Positions 2,923 to 11,918 of a DNA stretch of 64,000 nt are shown piece by piece. This DNA is from an uncultured Gemmatimonadales bacterium (GTDB lineage Bacteria; Gemmatimonadota; Gemmatimonadetes; Longimicrobiales; RSA9). The DNA lies in assembly GCA_963798085.1 (NCBI GenBank), contig CAWCRS010000007.1:672001-736000 (forward strand), read 5' to 3'. A model generated the notes under the pieces. It saw only the letters and a list, made by a program, of their open reading frames with translations. It ran no database searches and was not told the DNA's origin. Made by a program: the position numbers and the translations under genes. The stretch's first letter is position 1. Every line of letters begins with the position of its first letter.

Positions 2923-3217
2923 GGTCGGATTCTCCGTCGGTCAGTACGCTGTGACTCGCGACGCCGTAGTCCGCGCGGACGGCTGGATCGCAAGCGCGGC
3001 GGCCGGTGTCGTGGTGGGACGGTCAGCGTGAGGAAGATAGGGGGTTGTCGCCCGCTACGGGAGTATACAGGTCGGCATGCAACGGACCCGGGACGGATGG
3101 GCCGGCGAGGCGGGGCGGAACCCGCTGCTCGGGGATGGACCGGCGCGCCCACCCTCGGCATCCGCCAGAGACCTTGCAGATTGCCAGCCAAAACGGTGAG
3201 CGGCGTCGTCGTCCACA

Positions 3218-3254
3218 ATTCATAAATCATTCATGAGCAATAACTTATATGAAT
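3218..3254. promoter_or_regulatory. AT-rich imperfect palindrome in divergent promoter region (IHF-like or regulator site)
   Basis: attcataaatcattcatgagcaataacttatatgaat; attcata/tatgaat outer arms; contains CAA-N4-TTA. Confidence 0.45.
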
Positions 3255-3347
3255 CACACCCGGTGGTGCGATTCCTGCTCGAACGACGGGTGCCCCAGGC
3301 ACGAGTGCGTCCGGGGCCTGTCTGATTCCTGACCCGAGAGGTGAGGC

Positions 3348-3950
3348 ATGCGCCGACGCTGGCACATACCCGGGGCCGCGGCCGTTCTGGCCATCGCGCT
3401 GTTCTGCCTGAGTTGCGACCGAAGCTCTCCCACCGACACACCGCTGAATCCGCCCGCCAGTGGAGCCCTGCTGGGGCTGCCGCGTCTGGGCGGAGCGGAT
3501 CCGACGCCGCAGCTGCCACGCGGGATGCGGTTCATCGAGGAGGAGCGGTCCGGCGGTGGCCAGGATCTGGTAACGGGCCTCTTCGGTCTGCTGGGCGGTG
3601 AGCTGCACCTGAACGGCGAATCACTGCTGGTGCCGGAGGGCGCGGTGCTGCGGTTGACGCTGTTCACGATGGAGACACCGGACACGAAGGTCATCAATGT
3701 CAACCTGAGTGCGCTGACGGGCGATCTGCTGCGCAACGTGCTGTCGCTGCTGGGCCTGTTCCAGAAGCCGGTGACGGTGGAGTTGTCGTATGCGCACGCG
3801 ACGAACGTCACGGATCCGGGCAAGCTGGTGATCGTGCGACTGCTGGACGACGGCAAGGTCGAGGTCCTGCCGACGCGTGTGGACCGGCAGCGCAAGGTAG
3901 TGTCAGCGCAGCTCGATCACTTCTCGAAGTACGCAATGGCATCCAACTGA
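3348..3950 (+). CDS. Lipoprotein with ZU5-like domain ending in HFS-KYAMASN
   Basis: RBS gaggtgagg; signal peptide and lipobox-like CLSC; GGEL..L.VPEGAV, FQKPVTVELSY, VD..V.A.LDHFSKYA are ZU5-like features. Confidence 0.7.
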   Translation: MRRRWHIPGAAAVLAIALFCLSCDRSSPTDTPLNPPASGALLGLPRLGGADPTPQLPRGMRFIEEERSGGGQDLVTGLFGLLGGELHLNGESLLVPEGAVLRLTLFTMETPDTKVINVNLSALTGDLLRNVLSLLGLFQKPVTVELSYAHATNVTDPGKLVIVRLLDDGKVEVLPTRVDRQRKVVSAQLDHFSKYAMASN

Positions 3951-3953
3951 CGC

Positions 3954-5609
3954 ATGGAACGCCGGCTCGAGTTGCACAGCGCGCGCGACACCGAGGAGAC
4001 ACTGGAGTCGCTGGTCGAGCAGGGCCGGGCCGCCGAACGCGCGGGCGCATGGGATGAAGCGCTGCGCGCGTTCGACGGCGCGTTCCGCAAGCTGCGCCGC
4101 GAGCACGGAGCGGAGCGCGCGGCGGAGCTGCTGCGCTGGATCGGGACGGTGTTCCGCAATCGCGGCGAGCTGGAGAATGCGCACGAGTTGTACGAAGCGA
4201 GTCTGGCCGTTGCCGAAGCCGCAGCGCTGCCCTACCACATCGCCTCCGCGCTCAACTGTCTGGCCATCATCGCGCAGTTTCGCGCCAACGTGGATGATGC
4301 GGAGCAGCTCTACCTGCGCGCGAGTGAACTGGCGCAGCAGGCCGGTGACGACCGGCTGGCGGCCATGATCGATCAGAACGTAGGAACGCTGGCTAACACG
4401 AAAGGCAGCTACGACGCGGCGCTCGGTCACTATCGCTCGGCGCTCCGCCGTTTCCGCCGTCTGCAGGATGAAGTCGCCGCGGCGTGGGTGCTCAACAACA
4501 TGGGCATGGCGCACGTCGACCTGGGGCAGTGGAACAACGCGGTGCGCGCGTTCGACGAAGCCTTCGAGCTGGCGGATCGCCAGCGCGACACGCACCTGAT
4601 CGGCACCATCGAGCTGAACCGCGCCGAGCTGCATCTCAAGCGCGGTGTTGTGGGCGATGCGCGCGACTGCTGCGACCGCGCGTTCGAGGTGTTCAGCCGG
4701 GTGGGCTCGCAGAGCGGTCTGGGCGAGGCCTACAAGTTCTACGGTGTACTCTACCGCGAGATGGGCAAGCCGGGTCTGGCCACCACGCATCTGCGCAACG
4801 CCATCGAAACGGCAGTGGGCTGTGAGGACCGGCTGCTGGAAGCGGAAGCGCGAAGCGAGGCTGCGCTGCTGCATCTCGATAACGGCGAGAATCGCACCGC
4901 GCTCGAGTGCATGAACCGCGCGCACCGGCTGTTCACGGACCTGCGCGCGCGTGCCGAGCTGCTGGATGTGGATTCCCGTCTGGACCGGCTGGAGGAGACG
5001 TTCCTGAAGGTGGTGAAGGCCTGGGGCGAGTCGATCGAGTCCAAGGATCGGTACACCGCGGGTCACTGCGAGCGTGTGGCTGACTACGCCTGTCTGCTGG
5101 CGGAAGCACTGGGCTTCCAGGGTCGCGATCTTACGTGGATGCGCATGGGCGGGTTCCTGCACGATGTGGGCAAGATCGTGGTGCCGCCCGCGATCCTGAA
5201 CAAACCGGGAAAACTGAGTCCCGAGGAATTCGACGTGATGAAGACACACACCACGGCTGGTGACGAGCTGACTACGCCGCTCAACTTTCCGTGGGACATC
5301 CGGCCGATCGTGCGCAACCACCACGAACGCTGGGACGGCACAGGCTATCCCGACGGCCTCGAGGGAGAGGACATCCCGCTGGTGGCGCGCATTCTGTGCG
5401 TCGCGGATGTCTACGACGCGCTCACGACGGCGCGCAGCTACCGGCCGGCGCTGCCCGCGCTCGAGGCCCTGCGCATCATGGAGCGCGAGTCCGGCAGCAA
5501 TCTGGATCCGAAGATCTTTCCCATCTTCCGCCAGCTGATTCTGGAGCATGCCGCCCAGCGCGGCGGCATGGCACGGCTGCGCACCCCGGGCGCGTTCGCC
5601 GCCGCCTAG
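3954..5609 (+). CDS. TPR-repeat + HD-GYP phosphodiesterase (cyclic dinucleotide)
   Basis: Roughly 8 TPR-like helical repeats (ALNCLA, DQNVG, LNNMG), then KDRYTAGHCERV, LHDVGK, HHERWDGTGYPDGL, ADVYDAL, RSYR; no TM segment or signal peptide. Confidence 0.93.
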   Translation: MERRLELHSARDTEETLESLVEQGRAAERAGAWDEALRAFDGAFRKLRREHGAERAAELLRWIGTVFRNRGELENAHELYEASLAVAEAAALPYHIASALNCLAIIAQFRANVDDAEQLYLRASELAQQAGDDRLAAMIDQNVGTLANTKGSYDAALGHYRSALRRFRRLQDEVAAAWVLNNMGMAHVDLGQWNNAVRAFDEAFELADRQRDTHLIGTIELNRAELHLKRGVVGDARDCCDRAFEVFSRVGSQSGLGEAYKFYGVLYREMGKPGLATTHLRNAIETAVGCEDRLLEAEARSEAALLHLDNGENRTALECMNRAHRLFTDLRARAELLDVDSRLDRLEETFLKVVKAWGESIESKDRYTAGHCERVADYACLLAEALGFQGRDLTWMRMGGFLHDVGKIVVPPAILNKPGKLSPEEFDVMKTHTTAGDELTTPLNFPWDIRPIVRNHHERWDGTGYPDGLEGEDIPLVARILCVADVYDALTTARSYRPALPALEALRIMERESGSNLDPKIFPIFRQLILEHAAQRGGMARLRTPGAFAAA

Positions 5610-5639: not shown

Positions 5640-5903
5640 ATGGCGCCGTCCGACCGGATCCGACTCCTGTGGTTGCGCGGATCGCTGTTCGCCACCGCGC
5701 TCCTGTCTGCGCTCGTGCTGCAGGGTTGCGGCCGGCGCGGGCCGGCAGACTCGCCACTGTCGCCTCCGGTGGCGAGCGCCGATGCCGCGGCATCCCGTGA
5801 GTCAGGCGACACACCCGCGTCCGGTCGCTCGCAGGGATTCACCTTCGTCGAGGAATACCGCGCGCCGGGCTCCGCCTCGGTCAGCACGATGGCCTCCAAC
5901 TGA
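5640..5903 (+). CDS. Small lipoprotein, shortened paralog of 3348-3950, ending SVSTMASN
   Basis: Lipobox LQGC; 17/45 ungapped identities to the upstream lipoprotein from the lipobox Cys; identical C-terminal MASN. Confidence 0.75.
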   Translation: MAPSDRIRLLWLRGSLFATALLSALVLQGCGRRGPADSPLSPPVASADAAASRESGDTPASGRSQGFTFVEEYRAPGSASVSTMASN

Positions 5904-5909
5904 TCCGGG

Positions 5910-7553
5910 TCAACGGCTGGCGGTGCGCGGCTGGGCGTCGGCCAGCCACCAGCTTCCCACATTGATGAACGCGCCACGCACATCCATAACGGCCCCGCGC
6001 AGTCGCGCGCGTGCGGCGTAGAGATTCGGGACGTACCAGAGGAAGGTCCAGGGCTGCTCGTCCCGGATGATGCGCTGCACCCGGTGCCAGCGCGGGATCG
6101 CGTCGCGGCGATCCGTGAGCGTGGCCAGCGTGTCGAGCGTGGCATCCACGGTGGCGTTGTGAAACGAGGCGAGCTGGTATTCGCCGTTGATGGCGGCGGA
6201 ATGGAAGGTGTCGCGCAGGTTGATGCGGAAATCCGCGTCCCACGCCATGAGCACGGCGTCGAAGTCGCGGGCCGGGCTCGAGATCTGGCCGATGAGCGTG
6301 GTGAACTCGACGGGTCGCACGCTCATGCTGACACCCACGTTCGCAAGATCCGCCTGGATCATTTCCGCGACGTCACGGGTGAAGGCGTTGCTCGTGGGGA
6401 TCTTCAGCTCGATGCGGAAGGGCCGGCCGTCCGGCAGCCGCAGCTTGCCGGAGGCGTCGGGGCGCAGACCCGCTTCGGCGAAAAGAGCGCGCGCGGCCGC
6501 CGTGTCGTACGGCAGCGGGCGCACGGAATCGGGGAACGCCCAGTGGAACGGGCCGATCGGACCGGAGGCCAGCTCGCCGTGGCCGCCGCGCAGCACCTGC
6601 AGGATCTGCGGACGGTTGATCGACAGGGTGAGCGCACGCCGCACCCGCGCATCATCCAGAGGTCGGCGCTTTCCGTTCCAGCCGATGAAGTGGTACTGCG
6701 TCGCCGCTTTCACGATGGGCACGACGCCGGCCTCGCCCCGGAGTCGCGTCAGATCCTCCGCGCGCGGCGCGAGAATCAGGTCCGCGTTGCCGGTGAGCAG
6801 CTCGGTCACCTGCGCGGTGTTCTCGCTGATGACTCGCCACACCACGCGGTCCAGGTGCGGCCGGCCGCCCAGACCCGCCGGAAAGTCGGGATTGGCGTCG
6901 AACACCCAGCGATCGCCGGCGCGATACTCCGCGAAGCGGAACGGACCGTTGCCGATGGGCGCGTGATTGAATCCGGCCTGACGCATGCGCGCGGGCGGAA
7001 TCGAATCCAGCGCGTGCTTCGGCATGATGGGCAGGAACGCCCATGTCAGCAGCGGATCGATGAAGCGGTCGAGTGTGAAGCGGACGGTGAAGGAATCCAC
7101 CACGGATACGGACTTCCAGTGCATGAGATCATCGGCATTGGGAAAGCCGCTGGCCGGATCGCGCGCCCGGTCGAACGTGAATGCCACGTCCCATGCGGTC
7201 GTCTTCGGTCCATCGCTCCAGCGCACGTCGTCGCGCATGTGGAAGACCAGCGCGGTGTCGCCCTGCCAGTCCCAGCTGCGCGCCAGCGCGGGCTGAAAGC
7301 CGCCCTCCACATCCAGGGATACGAGTGGCAGGAAGAGCGCGTGCAGCAGGAGGTCCTGCGTGTAGGACTCGGACGCAATGAACGCATTCATGGGTCCGAC
7401 GTCGTTGGGGCCGGCGATCACCAGCGTACCACCATCCCGCGGCGCGGCATCAGCGGCGGACGCGACCGGCAGCGGCGCGTTGTCCCGGCACGCTGTGCCC
7501 AGCGCGGCGGTCAGTGCGAGGAGCAGCCGGCCGAGCGTAAGAGCCGGGTGCAT
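5910..7553 (-). CDS. ABC transporter peptide-binding lipoprotein (SBP family 5, OppA/DppA/AppA-like); alternative start 7601
   Basis: Lipobox GTAC; LARSW, F.MR.DV.WSDG..TA.DV.FT, PIGNGPFRF, VRRAL..I.R motifs; no permease or ATPase adjacent. Confidence 0.9.
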   Translation of the reverse strand: MHPALTLGRLLLALTAALGTACRDNAPLPVASAADAAPRDGGTLVIAGPNDVGPMNAFIASESYTQDLLLHALFLPLVSLDVEGGFQPALARSWDWQGDTALVFHMRDDVRWSDGPKTTAWDVAFTFDRARDPASGFPNADDLMHWKSVSVVDSFTVRFTLDRFIDPLLTWAFLPIMPKHALDSIPPARMRQAGFNHAPIGNGPFRFAEYRAGDRWVFDANPDFPAGLGGRPHLDRVVWRVISENTAQVTELLTGNADLILAPRAEDLTRLRGEAGVVPIVKAATQYHFIGWNGKRRPLDDARVRRALTLSINRPQILQVLRGGHGELASGPIGPFHWAFPDSVRPLPYDTAAARALFAEAGLRPDASGKLRLPDGRPFRIELKIPTSNAFTRDVAEMIQADLANVGVSMSVRPVEFTTLIGQISSPARDFDAVLMAWDADFRINLRDTFHSAAINGEYQLASFHNATVDATLDTLATLTDRRDAIPRWHRVQRIIRDEQPWTFLWYVPNLYAARARLRGAVMDVRGAFINVGSWWLADAQPRTASR

Positions 7554-7843
7554 GCGACCGGCGGAAGCTGCGTCCGCCGCACGAAATCGGAATCCGCCCA
7601 TGGTTTCGACCTTCGGATGCGCGACGAGAGCGGCTGCGCGGGGAGCAGCCGGCGTTCGGGGAGTGAGCCGTCTCTTCAGTCTCGGCAGTCCCGGCCGGCT
7701 GGCGCAGTGGAAGAAGCGCCCCGGGGAAGGGGCCGGAGCTCCGGGCACGCGGTTGCATTGCAGGCCTGGCCGGCAACACCGAAGTTGCGGTGACGTGCGA
7801 CTGCGGGACCTCCGGTCCCGATCCCTGCAACCGACTCCGGATC

Positions 7844-9391
7844 ATGAGGACCTGCGCGGGTCTCGGCGCCCTTCTGCTGGGCAGTGCAGTCGCGTGTGCC
7901 AGGCCGCAGCCGGTATCGCTGGTATCGGTGGAACGCGTCATTACGCACGACAACCGGGCGGCCGCGGGCCGCCTGCGCAATGACGAGTTAGAGATCCACC
8001 TCGAGCTGCGCGCCGGCGAATGGTACCCGGATTCGCCATCGGGGCCGGCTGGCGTCGTGCAGACCTTCGCGCTCGAAGGCGGGCCGCCGCTGATTCCCGG
8101 ACCGCTCATCCGCGTGCGCACCGGCACGACCATCCACGCGACCGTGCACAACCCGCTCCCCGATTCGACGCTCGTGGTGCACGGCCTGCACACCCGGCCC
8201 GGTTCTGGCACCGATTCCCTCGTGGTCCGTCCCGGCGAGACGCGGGACGTGCGGTTCCCCGCGGGCCAGCCGGGCACCCACTTCTACTGGGGCTCGACCT
8301 CGCACACGGACATGGAGTCCCGACTCGGCAGCGACAGCCAGCTGGCCGGCGCGTTCATCATCGACCCCGCAGACGGGCCGGCGCACGAAGACCGCGTGTT
8401 CGTCATCGGGCAACTGGTTCGATCCCCCGGATTCCGCAGGCCCGCCGCCCGTCGTCGAGCGCGATGTGATGGTGATCAACGGACGGTCGTGGCCATGGAC
8501 CGAGCGCTTCGACCTGCTGCAGGGCGATACCATCTACTGGCGCTGGCTGAACCCCACGCCCAACGCACACCCAATGCACCTGCACGGTTTCTTCTACGAC
8601 GTCACCAGCCGCGGCAGCTGGGCGGCAGACACGGTGTTAGAGAGGGGGCCGCGCCAGGTGGTCACGGAAACCATGCTGCCGGGTTCGACGTTCGCCATGC
8701 GCTGGGTCGCGGAAAGGCCGGGCAACTGGCTGTTCCACTGCCACTTTGCGTTCCACGTGTCGCATTTCCTCTCGTTCCGCAAGATTCCGGACCCCGAGGA
8801 TGCCGATCCGCCGGGCGTGTTGGAGCATTCGGCCAGCAGCATGCGCGGGTTGATCCTGGGCTTGCACGTGCGGGAGCGGAACGACCGTCCGGGCGAGGCT
8901 GTCAGGGGGACCGAAAGCGCGGCCGCGAGTGCGGCGGACACGGCGACGCCGCCGCGGCGGGTCCGCCTGCTGGTGGACGCGAAGAATCCGGGACCCCGCG
9001 AACAGTTCGGTTATGTCGTGCAGAACGGGGCGGAACCGGCGCGTGACTCCGTCCTCGCGCTTCACGCCGCCACGCGCCGGCACGTTCATCTACCATTCGC
9101 ACTCGAACGAAGACGCGCGTGTTCATCGCACTGGCGCGGCGGGCGCCACCGGCAGGGAAATGGGTGGGACGTACCGCCGCGGACTACCAGCTGGCGGAGT
9201 GGCGCGCGGTGGCGAAGGATGGCGCCGATCTGCCCGCCGCGCAGCAGGTGAGCGGGCCGGCCTGGATCGGCATGGGACCGGGCGAGACCGCCGACTTTGC
9301 GTTCACACCCACCATCGCCGGCGACCTGACGATGCAGGTCGTGACGCAGGTCGAGGGGTGGGTGCTCGATCTGCCGCTACACGTGCGGTAG
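7844..9391 (+). pseudogene. Multicopper oxidase, frameshifted with apparent internal deletions
   Basis: Pieces in several frames: PGPLIRV, VHGLH, HPMHLHG, WLFHCH..FH, FTPPRAGTFIYHSH, WRAVAKDGADLP; breaks near 8430-8465, 9055 and 9115. Confidence 0.75.
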
Positions 9392-10657: not shown

Positions 10658-11878
10658 TCACGAAGCCGACGGGTCGCCGACGCGGCCCATGAACAGGATC
10701 GTGCCCGACGAGCGCTCGCGGATCGCGAACAGGAACGGCCGGTCGAACACGAGCGAGGGCGGCAGCGACGTCACGCCAATGCCAACCGCGGTGGCGGCGG
10801 CCGCCTCCGTGCCCAGCTCGTGCACATCGATGAACGTCTTGTGCTCGACGCGCGAGATATAGAGGTCGTTTCGTGAAGTCGTAATGCGACCGAAGTCCGC
10901 CTGAAGCGGCAGGAACGCGACCGGCATCCCCATCGACTTCAGCGCATCATCCAGTCGCACGCCGAAATCGAAGCGGAACTTCGGCATGATCGTGATCAGC
11001 CGCCCCGGCTGCAGCTGCGCCATCCAGCTCTGCCAGCGCTGCGGTGTGAGCGAGACGATGAGATCGCTGAGCTTGCCGCCCGGCGGCGGCGCCACCACCA
11101 CCATGCTGAACGCACTGTCCGCATACAGCAGCTCGACCGCCTGGATCTCGCTGTTGTTGACGAATGGCCGCGTCGCATCCCCCGACATCGTCGCTACGCT
11201 GACCTGCGCACCGCTGAGTGTGGTGAACGGCGCGTTGCCCGTGGCGTCAGGATTGAACGGCGTGCTCCAGGGCGCCTTGAAGTAGACCGCGTTCACCAGG
11301 AACATCACCTCCGCCGGATCGATCTGCTGGACCAGATCCTTGATGCGTCCGCCGGTTGCGTCTTCCGCCCAGTGGCTGATCGTGCCCGGCGCCGAGGCGG
11401 AGCGGAAGTCGATCGATCGGACTTCCGCATCGAACCAGTTCTTCGCCGCGTCCAGGAACGGCTGCTCCACCGAAAACGTCTGCTCGTACCAGATCGAATT
11501 CGCCAGCCTGAACTCGACCTTCGAGTCACGGGCGCGCAGCTGCTGGATGAGCCCCTTGTACGCCGCGTTCACATCCGCTTCCGCCATGCCGCCGAAGCCC
11601 AGCACATCGCGCATTTGGGAGAGGGTCTCGCCCTGCGCGCCATTCGCCGTCATGCCCAGCGCCATTGACGCACTGAGCGGCGAGACCATGACGTTCGGTG
11701 CGCTGGCGCTGCCCGCTGTTGCGGAGAACAGACGGAGCCCAAACGAAGTGTTAGCGCTGGAGACGCGGAGTTCGTCGGCGGTGAAAGCTCGGGGCGGCTC
11801 CGTCGGCAGGACATCCGTGGCGGAGTGGCAGGCCGAGAGCGCTGCTGAGAACAGAAGAGTGGCGGCGAGCTTCTTCAT
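10658..11878 (-). CDS. Serpin-family lipoprotein (serine protease inhibitor)
   Basis: Lipobox LSAC; SPLS, NAVYFKAPW, hinge ELGTEAAAAT, FDRPFLF; RBS aggtagga. Confidence 0.95.
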   Translation of the reverse strand: MKKLAATLLFSAALSACHSATDVLPTEPPRAFTADELRVSSANTSFGLRLFSATAGSASAPNVMVSPLSASMALGMTANGAQGETLSQMRDVLGFGGMAEADVNAAYKGLIQQLRARDSKVEFRLANSIWYEQTFSVEQPFLDAAKNWFDAEVRSIDFRSASAPGTISHWAEDATGGRIKDLVQQIDPAEVMFLVNAVYFKAPWSTPFNPDATGNAPFTTLSGAQVSVATMSGDATRPFVNNSEIQAVELLYADSAFSMVVVAPPPGGKLSDLIVSLTPQRWQSWMAQLQPGRLITIMPKFRFDFGVRLDDALKSMGMPVAFLPLQADFGRITTSRNDLYISRVEHKTFIDVHELGTEAAAATAVGIGVTSLPPSLVFDRPFLFAIRERSSGTILFMGRVGDPSAS

Positions 11879-11918
11879 GGTCCTACCTCTGCAAGGTCGC
11901 ATCGTCTGCAAACGACAT

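Follow-up and report, generated by a model that had tools for sequence, protein, structure and literature searches.

We analysed a window of 64,000 nucleotides from a contig of an uncultured Gemmatimonadales bacterium (CAWCRS010000007.1). Near its start is a group of genes that includes a small lipoprotein, designated P0001. The features are as follows.

3348..3950, + strand: lipoprotein P0001, 200 aa, with a signal peptide, a Pro/Gly linker and a ZU5/GAIN-fold domain at approximately residues 58-200 (sequence, profiles and model)
3348..3416, + strand: lipoprotein-type signal peptide up to Cys23 (read from the sequence)
3918..3926, + strand: H191-F192-S193, with the predicted cut between F192 and S193 (conservation, model and the MAIN precedent, discussed below)
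3924..3947, + strand: octapeptide SKYAMASN, the last β-strand in the model and a candidate signal (model, tail counts and tail sharing)
3954..5609, + strand: P0002, 551 aa, TPR and HD-GYP, candidate receptor (profiles, model and conservation)
5640..5903, + strand: P0003, 87 aa, a diverged paralogue of P0001 (comparison with P0001)
5910..7748, - strand: family-5 (Opp/Dpp-type) peptide ABC substrate-binding protein, start codon uncertain, candidate part of an importer (profiles)

The N-terminus of P0001, as read from the sequence, consists of a basic N-region and a hydrophobic stretch, followed by Cys23. The C-terminus is V184-V-S-A-Q-L-D-H191-F192-S193-K-Y-A-M-A-S-N200-stop, with codons for His at 3918-3920, Phe at 3921-3923 and Ser at 3924-3926, and the stop at 3948-3950. 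An earlier sequence-only reading had described a 200-residue lipoprotein ending in DHF-SKYAMASN, and the open reading frame at 3348-3950 (+) and its translation confirm this. P0001 has no NCBIfam model. One DNA sequencing run left P0001 almost uncovered and P0003 wholly uncovered.

The same reading pointed to an HF|S self-cleavage motif eight residues from the end of the protein. By itself, this motif is weak evidence, hardly over chance in one genome: HF[ST] occurs 7-8 residues before the stop in 6 of the genome's 19,120 stop-to-stop frames of at least 150 aa, compared to 2.4 expected. It is the conservation, not the motif alone, that makes the feature real. An alignment of 27 proteins, which came from a word-seeded search and is therefore biased to the tail, shows no variation at H191, F192, S193 or Y195, and in all 27 the stop is exactly eight residues past HF. 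The motif claim thus stands. Cys23 is almost invariant in the same alignment, and a lipobox-like Cys was found by pattern in 158 of the 179 short-tail ORFs (defined below) that have a 5' end.

A model of residues 58-200 of P0001, based on a 150-row alignment, has a mean pLDDT of 92. HFS sits in the turn between model strands E127-132 and E137-142, and the octapeptide forms the last β-strand, as had been proposed. Foldseek gave ankyrin ZU5 as the best match (E 7e-5), followed by the GAIN domains of BAI2, CELSR1, BAI3 and CD97 (E 4e-3 to 1e-2) and also UNC5b. The VIA wide structure search gave Z 11.2 for ankyrin ZU5 (rmsd 2.7, 116 aligned), 9.7 for the GAIN domains of CELSR1 and CD97, 8.9 for UNC5b, 6.7 for CARD8 and 4.6 for Nup98. 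P0001 alone matches Pfam ZU5 only at E 0.18; 79 of 150 family members match at E<=0.1, and there is a profile match to ankyrin-2 ZU5 with E 2e-4. Both the suggestion of a ZU5-like region and the proposed check by structure prediction and Foldseek have therefore come out in favour: by profiles and model, P0001 has the ZU5/GAIN-B β-sandwich fold, with an HX(S/T) site (H191-F192-S193) in the turn before the last strand.

Cleavage at such a site is described for the MAIN domain (Brogan & Rudner, bioRxiv 10.64898/2026.05.12.724683). The main text of this preprint reports that HF|S is cut between F and S, as determined by Edman degradation, that S-to-A mutants lose cleavage, and that the products stay stably associated, the products of GAIN likewise remaining tightly associated. 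Our family profile aligns over 105 columns, including HFS, with a protein from Vallitalea (Bacillota) (hhalign 97.8%). This protein consists of Ig-like cargo, an HFS domain and SLH anchors, which is the MAIN architecture, and HFSKYA is also found in it. We infer that cleavage of P0001 is likely, because this homologue aligns and MAIN cleavage is published; by homology to MAIN, P0001 and the other HF|S members probably self-cleave. We found nothing in PMC11760013 about what the His does. The sequence-only reading compared the octapeptide to the Stachel strand of adhesion GPCRs. The position of the strand agrees with that analogy, but there is no 7TM receptor, and the MAIN domain is the nearer published relative.

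Of 401 genomes sampled across the phylum, 145 have relatives of P0001 by profile, as do 58 of 73 genomes of the family. The named hosts of relatives are mostly Longimicrobiales/Gemmatimonadota (8 of 10 loci), and the Atlas clusters of relatives are commonest in Gemmatimonadota. The copy in L009, a locus labelled Gammaproteobacteria, looks the same as that in L053 and groups with Longimicrobiales loci, and is probably a binning error. For the sample, 135 non-own best matches were merged to 129, of which the first 120 were used; 78 further matches were left out. To these were added nine loci from genomes and 20 from metagenomes, retrieved by an HFS-containing pattern, as well as the window itself and the locus L001.

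The sample gave 196 domain ORFs, of which one spurious frame was removed, leaving 186 with tails of at most 25 residues (short-tail ORFs) and nine with long cargo. The short tails are 7 residues long in 129 of 186 and 8 residues long in 37 (together 166/186), and HF or HL is retained in 174 of 186, in searches that were seeded on profiles or patterns that contain the tail. The tail consensus is S-x-Y-A-[VILM]-A-[WY], or an 8-mer with a final N or D. No other strand of the domain is as conserved as the tail, on either face (mean entropy 1.27 vs 2.04-2.82 bits), and because it is also a core strand, the conservation of the tail is partly structural.

Several loci depart from the simple form. Four have a duplicated tail in which the C-terminal copy keeps the consensus: L070 (SRYVIAF-SDYVIAW), L102 (SGYVLRSK-SRYAVAY), L141 (SEYVLL-STYAVAY) and L178 (SDYVLL-STYAVVY). 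The receptor adjoining L070 groups with the class that fits the second copy. L171, L165, L177, L175 and L118 each have two to six lipoprotein genes with differing tails around a double-TPR gene, usually with a TPR-HD-GYP gene as well. The long-cargo copies (L095, L123, L127, L135, L147, L149, L158, L166 and L174) are of secreted type, with 100-900 residues past the domain (Ig-like, RCC1, β-lactamase family); they are like MAIN proteins, except that the cargo is C-terminal of the cut. When we looked for longer or fused forms, 8000 scored candidates yielded a single match, an SLH protein, and none with a fused TPR, which is weak evidence.

P0002 starts 3 nt downstream of the P0001 gene. Its TPR region (3999-4991) has about eight repeats of approximately 40 aa, with conserved N101, N142, N182, N222, R61 and E225, and is followed by an HD-GYP domain at about 5034-5516, in which the HDVGK and HHERWDGTGYP motifs are intact. 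Among relatives, the HD motif is intact in 82 of 85 and the GYP motif in 83 of 85. Having both the HD and the HHExxDGxGYP motif, P0002 is a predicted c-di-GMP phosphodiesterase. It has no signal peptide and no membrane segment, and no membrane- or signal-like segment was found in any of 164 TPR ORFs.

The link between the lipoprotein and TPR genes extends across the family. Of 142 short-tail loci, 125 have a TPR-family gene no more than 2.5 kb away (92 of the 100 with full flanks), and of the nine long-cargo loci none does, compared to a background of 1.4% of this genome lying within 2.5 kb of a TPR-family gene. The TPR profile was built up from P0002 using these loci themselves, which gives the family an advantage, but a search with P0002 by itself already recovers the neighbours. 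A TPR gene is also present at 37 of 40 further family-level loci, which were hand-picked from multi-copy genomes and counted by eye. The 149 full TPR modules comprise 87 fused to HD-GYP, 57 that are lone or cut by a contig end, and five double. For 129 of them the closest lipoprotein gene precedes the module on its own strand, and for 12 it is divergent. In the stretch examined, 17 of the 142 short-tail loci have no TPR-family gene, several of these ending at contig ends. One TPR-less cluster (L061:3-4915) encodes five short-tail lipoproteins in tandem, next to multiheme cytochrome and porin genes on the opposite strand, and the 10 kb examined there contain no TPR gene. A 1611-aa frame at L126:7353-12185 contains TPR, HD-GYP, GGDEF, AAA and a second TPR region, with two lipoprotein genes upstream.

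The asparagines in the TPR region of P0002 form a ladder of one per repeat, conserved in the 149 modules at 93% (N101), 97% (N142), 100% (N182) and 83% (N222). Recognition of peptide backbones by Asn is known for Rap and other TPR proteins, as described in PMC3601957, and the P0002 ladder matches this. The TPR model (pLDDT 98) has LGN/Pins, not RRNPP proteins, as its nearest structures by E-value. The best TM-scores among the best 50 matches are 0.76 for APPBP2 with its degron, 0.74 for APC/C, and 0.68 and 0.64 for peptide-bound phage Rap, the Rap structures ranking 34 and 44 by E-value. No RRNPP protein is among the best 60 of 199 TPR profile matches. P0002 is the likely receiver of the octapeptide, and we consider it reasonably likely that the octapeptide binds to its TPR region.

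P0002 is cytoplasmic, and therefore the peptide would need to be imported. The family-5 gene at 5910..7748 is convergent with the cassette. We found family-5 peptide-binding proteins at 30 of the 142 loci, or 20.9 per Mb, where kin loci are not independent; the background is 3 in 6.2 Mb in this genome and 19 in 20.3 Mb in five others (0.5-0.9 per Mb), so that peptide-transporter binding proteins are approximately 20-fold enriched near family loci. Their layouts vary: upstream with permeases, downstream, or convergent (the window, L043 and L048). At the other 112, the stretch examined contains none. P0003, between P0002 and the convergent gene, retains the lipoprotein signal, the linker, the first strand and the last four residues MASN of P0001 (it ends STMASN), and has lost the ZU5 core and HFS by an in-frame loss of approximately 113 residues. 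No second mini-protein of this type was found in the loci examined. P0003 may be a remnant, a decoy, or another way of delivering a C-terminal peptide.

Sigma-54 regulators form one neighbour cluster that spans 15 loci, often adjoining lone TPRs. A sigma-54-like site was found before 35 of 172 lipoprotein genes, compared to 1.6 in shuffled sequence and 19 of 3000 random windows. Upstream of the P0001 gene itself there is no such site, the best match having three mismatches, and no sigma-70-like site was found there. Between the divergent genes for the S9 peptidase and P0001 lies an AT-rich stretch (3217-3258) with an imperfect inverted repeat (TTCATA ... TATGAA), a possible regulator site. The S9 peptidase (421-2922) was considered as a component and rejected, because it did not turn up among the 45 largest clusters of neighbours, of which 44 were scanned or inspected. 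Further downstream, a multicopper-oxidase-like gene at 7790-9391 (+) is spread over three overlapping ORFs (7790-9046, 8466-9251 and 9119-9391) and looks frameshifted, by assembly error or decay, and a gene at 10658-11911 (-) appears by eye to encode a serpin-like lipoprotein with a reactive-loop-like GTEAAAATAVG.

The tails follow genome and receptor more than they follow the carrier. When the bodies are less than 25% identical, identical tails were found in 2 of 48 within-genome pairs and none of 6025 between-genome pairs. The corresponding figures are 3/22 vs 8/2900 at 25-35% body identity, and 9/33 vs 136/2321 at 35-45%. This genome has one other copy, L001 (L001:8545-9474, equivalent to C1:223544-224473), whose body is 26% identical to P0001 and which also ends in SKYAMASN. 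The two genes have three synonymous differences over 12 codons, which makes recent gene conversion unlikely. In a tail-free IQ-TREE phylogeny, L001 nests in a starred ten-row clade (98/94), seven rows of which have 7-mer aromatic tails and come from other families; two relatives from the window's family in this clade have 8-mers ending in N. L001 has no TPR gene nearby, and may supply the same receptor from a different promoter. Its gene is downstream of genes for S-adenosylhomocysteine hydrolase and an ArsR-methyltransferase.

Two further loci are informative. L183, from the carrier clade of L001, has an 8-mer tail adjoining an 8-mer-type receptor, and L243 has a 7-mer tail inside an 8-mer receptor clade, its receptor carrying M138K and W62S. 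Mutual information between peptide and TPR columns gave peaks with z up to 5.3. Covariation of position 2 with D338, the last residue with R138, and length with W62 was not significant, with 2-5 independent pairs; as proof of pairing the peaks thus failed, and they are retained as leads only. L001, L183, L243 and the duplicated tails are natural experiments, not statistics. The idea in the sequence-only reading that the peptide itself is the product has nevertheless gained genomic support, from tail length and TPR linkage, from tail sharing within genomes, and from the position of L001 in the tree.

On balance, we favour the proposal that P0001 is a self-processing propeptide, whose imported tail switches the adjacent TPR/c-di-GMP phosphodiesterase. 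P0001 would be exported and lipidated, and would then cut itself at HF|S. The SKYAMASN strand would be let go when the domain unfolds or is turned over; we suggest this mode of release because there is no attached cargo for a force to pull, and no trigger for release is evident at the locus. The freed peptide would be imported by a family-5 peptide ABC transporter, and would bind in the TPR groove of P0002, switching the predicted hydrolysis of c-di-GMP. The lone TPR paralogues located beside sigma-54 response regulators would act on the response regulator in a Rap-like manner. The interpretation given in the sequence-only reading is therefore right as to the fold and the position of the strand, and is incomplete in that it named no receiver. 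A wider proposal is that this is a phylum-wide cell-to-cell pheromone of diderm soil bacteria, in which a GAIN/ZU5 domain itself makes a diffusible 7-8-mer 'Stachel' without a processing protease, for uptake by an ABC transporter and recognition by dedicated TPR receptors that control c-di-GMP and sigma-54 regulators. This we regard as tentative, and doubtful on present evidence.

Not all of the family has the catalytic His, and the subfamily without it is large. The His is absent in 8 of 186 short-tail ORFs (GF|S, SF|S, GF|T), in 42 of 104 proteins of another set, counted by eye, and at eight more loci besides. His-less loci, including SF|T, are L080, L082, L097, L116, L121, L124, L131 and L148, with L219, L224, L226, L234, L237, L239, L245 and L251 in addition; at each of them the TPR stands alone and belongs to a separate type, in which R61 and N222 are replaced, and its neighbour is often a sigma-54 response regulator. 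Because His-less copies keep the 7-8-residue tail and, where the context is known, their own TPR gene, His-driven cleavage is not needed for the pairing. Either these copies are cut without His, or other proteases cut them, or cleavage is non-essential.

One alternative, which the His-less subfamily favours, is sensing that is independent of cleavage. Here the TPR protein would bind the free C-terminus of unexported precursor, or of fragments produced by ordinary proteases, so that the pair keeps watch on export or on the turnover of the lipoprotein, with HF|S merely accelerating the process. P0003, which keeps the signal and MASN without HFS, is consistent with this, as is the top TM-score of the TPR (among the best 50), which is to degron-bound APPBP2. 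However, the great majority of short-tail ORFs keep HF or HL, tails end at a set distance past the cut site, and the enriched peptide-transporter binding proteins would be superfluous for a purely cytoplasmic precursor. We therefore think this explanation unlikely. We rate much the same, or slightly lower, the explanation that the tail serves only as the structural final strand of an envelope ZU5/MAIN lipoprotein acting on its own, and that TPR-HD-GYP is a co-regulated neighbour with another ligand. It would account for the tail being a core strand in the model, for HFSKYA in an ordinary MAIN-architecture protein, for the non-significant phylogeny-aware covariation tests and for TPR-less clusters such as L061. 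It does not account for the TPR linkage, which is kept in same-strand (129/149) and divergent (12/149) layouts and through duplications but is absent in long-cargo copies (0/9), nor for the fixed stop position or the tails shared by distant paralogues in the same genome.

A more remote alternative is that the working product is the anchored N-terminal fragment, in which loss of the strand exposes a groove where other envelope proteins are captured by strand exchange, the peptide being a disposable cap. Because the anchor is on the N-terminal side, the large fragment would indeed stay at the membrane, and a ZU5-peptide complex (2kxs) is among the structural matches. We consider this very unlikely, as it leaves the cytoplasmic TPR partner, the transporter enrichment and the genome-matched tails unexplained. 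The self-processing propeptide remains the reading that we prefer.

The significance of the cassette lies in two lines of work that it brings together, in an abundant and little-studied soil phylum. Peptide signalling through cytoplasmic TPR proteins is described in PMC10075063 for Bacillota, and the main text of the MAIN preprint (bioRxiv 10.64898/2026.05.12.724683) leaves open the function of the C-terminal 'tethered peptide' of microbial GAIN domains. The cassette supplies a candidate ligand, receptor, importer and enzymatic read-out, so that one octapeptide and one protein can test the Stachel principle in bacteria. If the pheromone reading is true, it would be a bacterial example of the last GAIN strand as an agonist. 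Among the matches listed by full-text searches of the open-licence literature, we found no description of a self-cleaving lipoprotein paired with a TPR gene, and the cassette would represent a form of peptide signalling not described before in bacteria.

P0001 resembles MAIN proteins, as far as the preprint's main text describes them, in its GAIN-like fold, the HF|S turn before the last strand, predicted secretion and anchoring to the envelope, and profile homology. MAIN proteins have a mean mass of 158 kDa, with cargo at the N-terminus and an anchor at the C-terminus, and are proposed to shed cargo; according to the authors, no signalling by the C-terminal fragment is known (bioRxiv 10.64898/2026.05.12.724683). 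In P0001, by contrast, the anchor is N-terminal, there is no cargo, a free C-terminal 7-8-mer is predicted, and a TPR gene is linked. The stop eight residues past the site does not allow the MAIN layout of signal peptide, cargo, MAIN and C-terminal surface anchor, and P0001 was therefore not filed as a MAIN protein; it is a MAIN/ZU5-type domain in an inverted MAIN architecture. The words 'lipoprotein', 'ZU5', 'Gemmatimonad' and 'quorum' are absent from the main text of that preprint, and the approximately 15,000 MAIN proteins in its supplement may include members of the P0001 family.

Compared with GAIN/Stachel proteins and the ZU5 autopeptidases described in PMC3482391 (PIDD, Nup98, the FIIND of NLRP1/CARD8 and bacterial polymorphic-toxin ZU5), P0001 has the same fold and HX(S/T) site, and a last strand that possibly becomes a ligand. 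It differs in having no 7TM or effector domain past the strand, and in that the peptide would not be tethered and would need to pass the inner membrane.

In genetic organization there is a parallel with RRNPP systems (Rap-Phr, NprR, PlcR, PrgX, Rgg/ComR, AimR), in which the gene for a secreted precursor adjoins that for a cytoplasmic TPR receptor; here the genes for the predicted counterparts are 3 nt apart, and 125 of 142 loci have them within 2.5 kb. Other features of those systems, as described in PMC10075063 and PMC3601957, are a C-terminal mature peptide of 4-10 residues and recognition of its backbone by Asn, both predicted here, and extra or duplicated peptide copies, which are found here too. 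RRNPP receptors have 250-500 aa; P0002 has 551 aa and the lone paralogues approximately 300-370 aa, with the TPRs and the Asn ladder present. However, P0001 is a folded lipoprotein of 200 aa with predicted self-processing, whereas RRNPP propeptides are 10-100 aa and cut by host proteases (PMC10075063), and the hosts are mostly Gemmatimonadota, not Bacillota. For these reasons of propeptide size and host, we rejected filing the cassette as an RRNPP member. The output also differs, being a C-terminal HD-GYP domain behind an N-terminal TPR region, where RRNPP proteins have an HTH or a three-helix bundle. The logic that we propose is thus like that of Rap-Phr, built from different parts.
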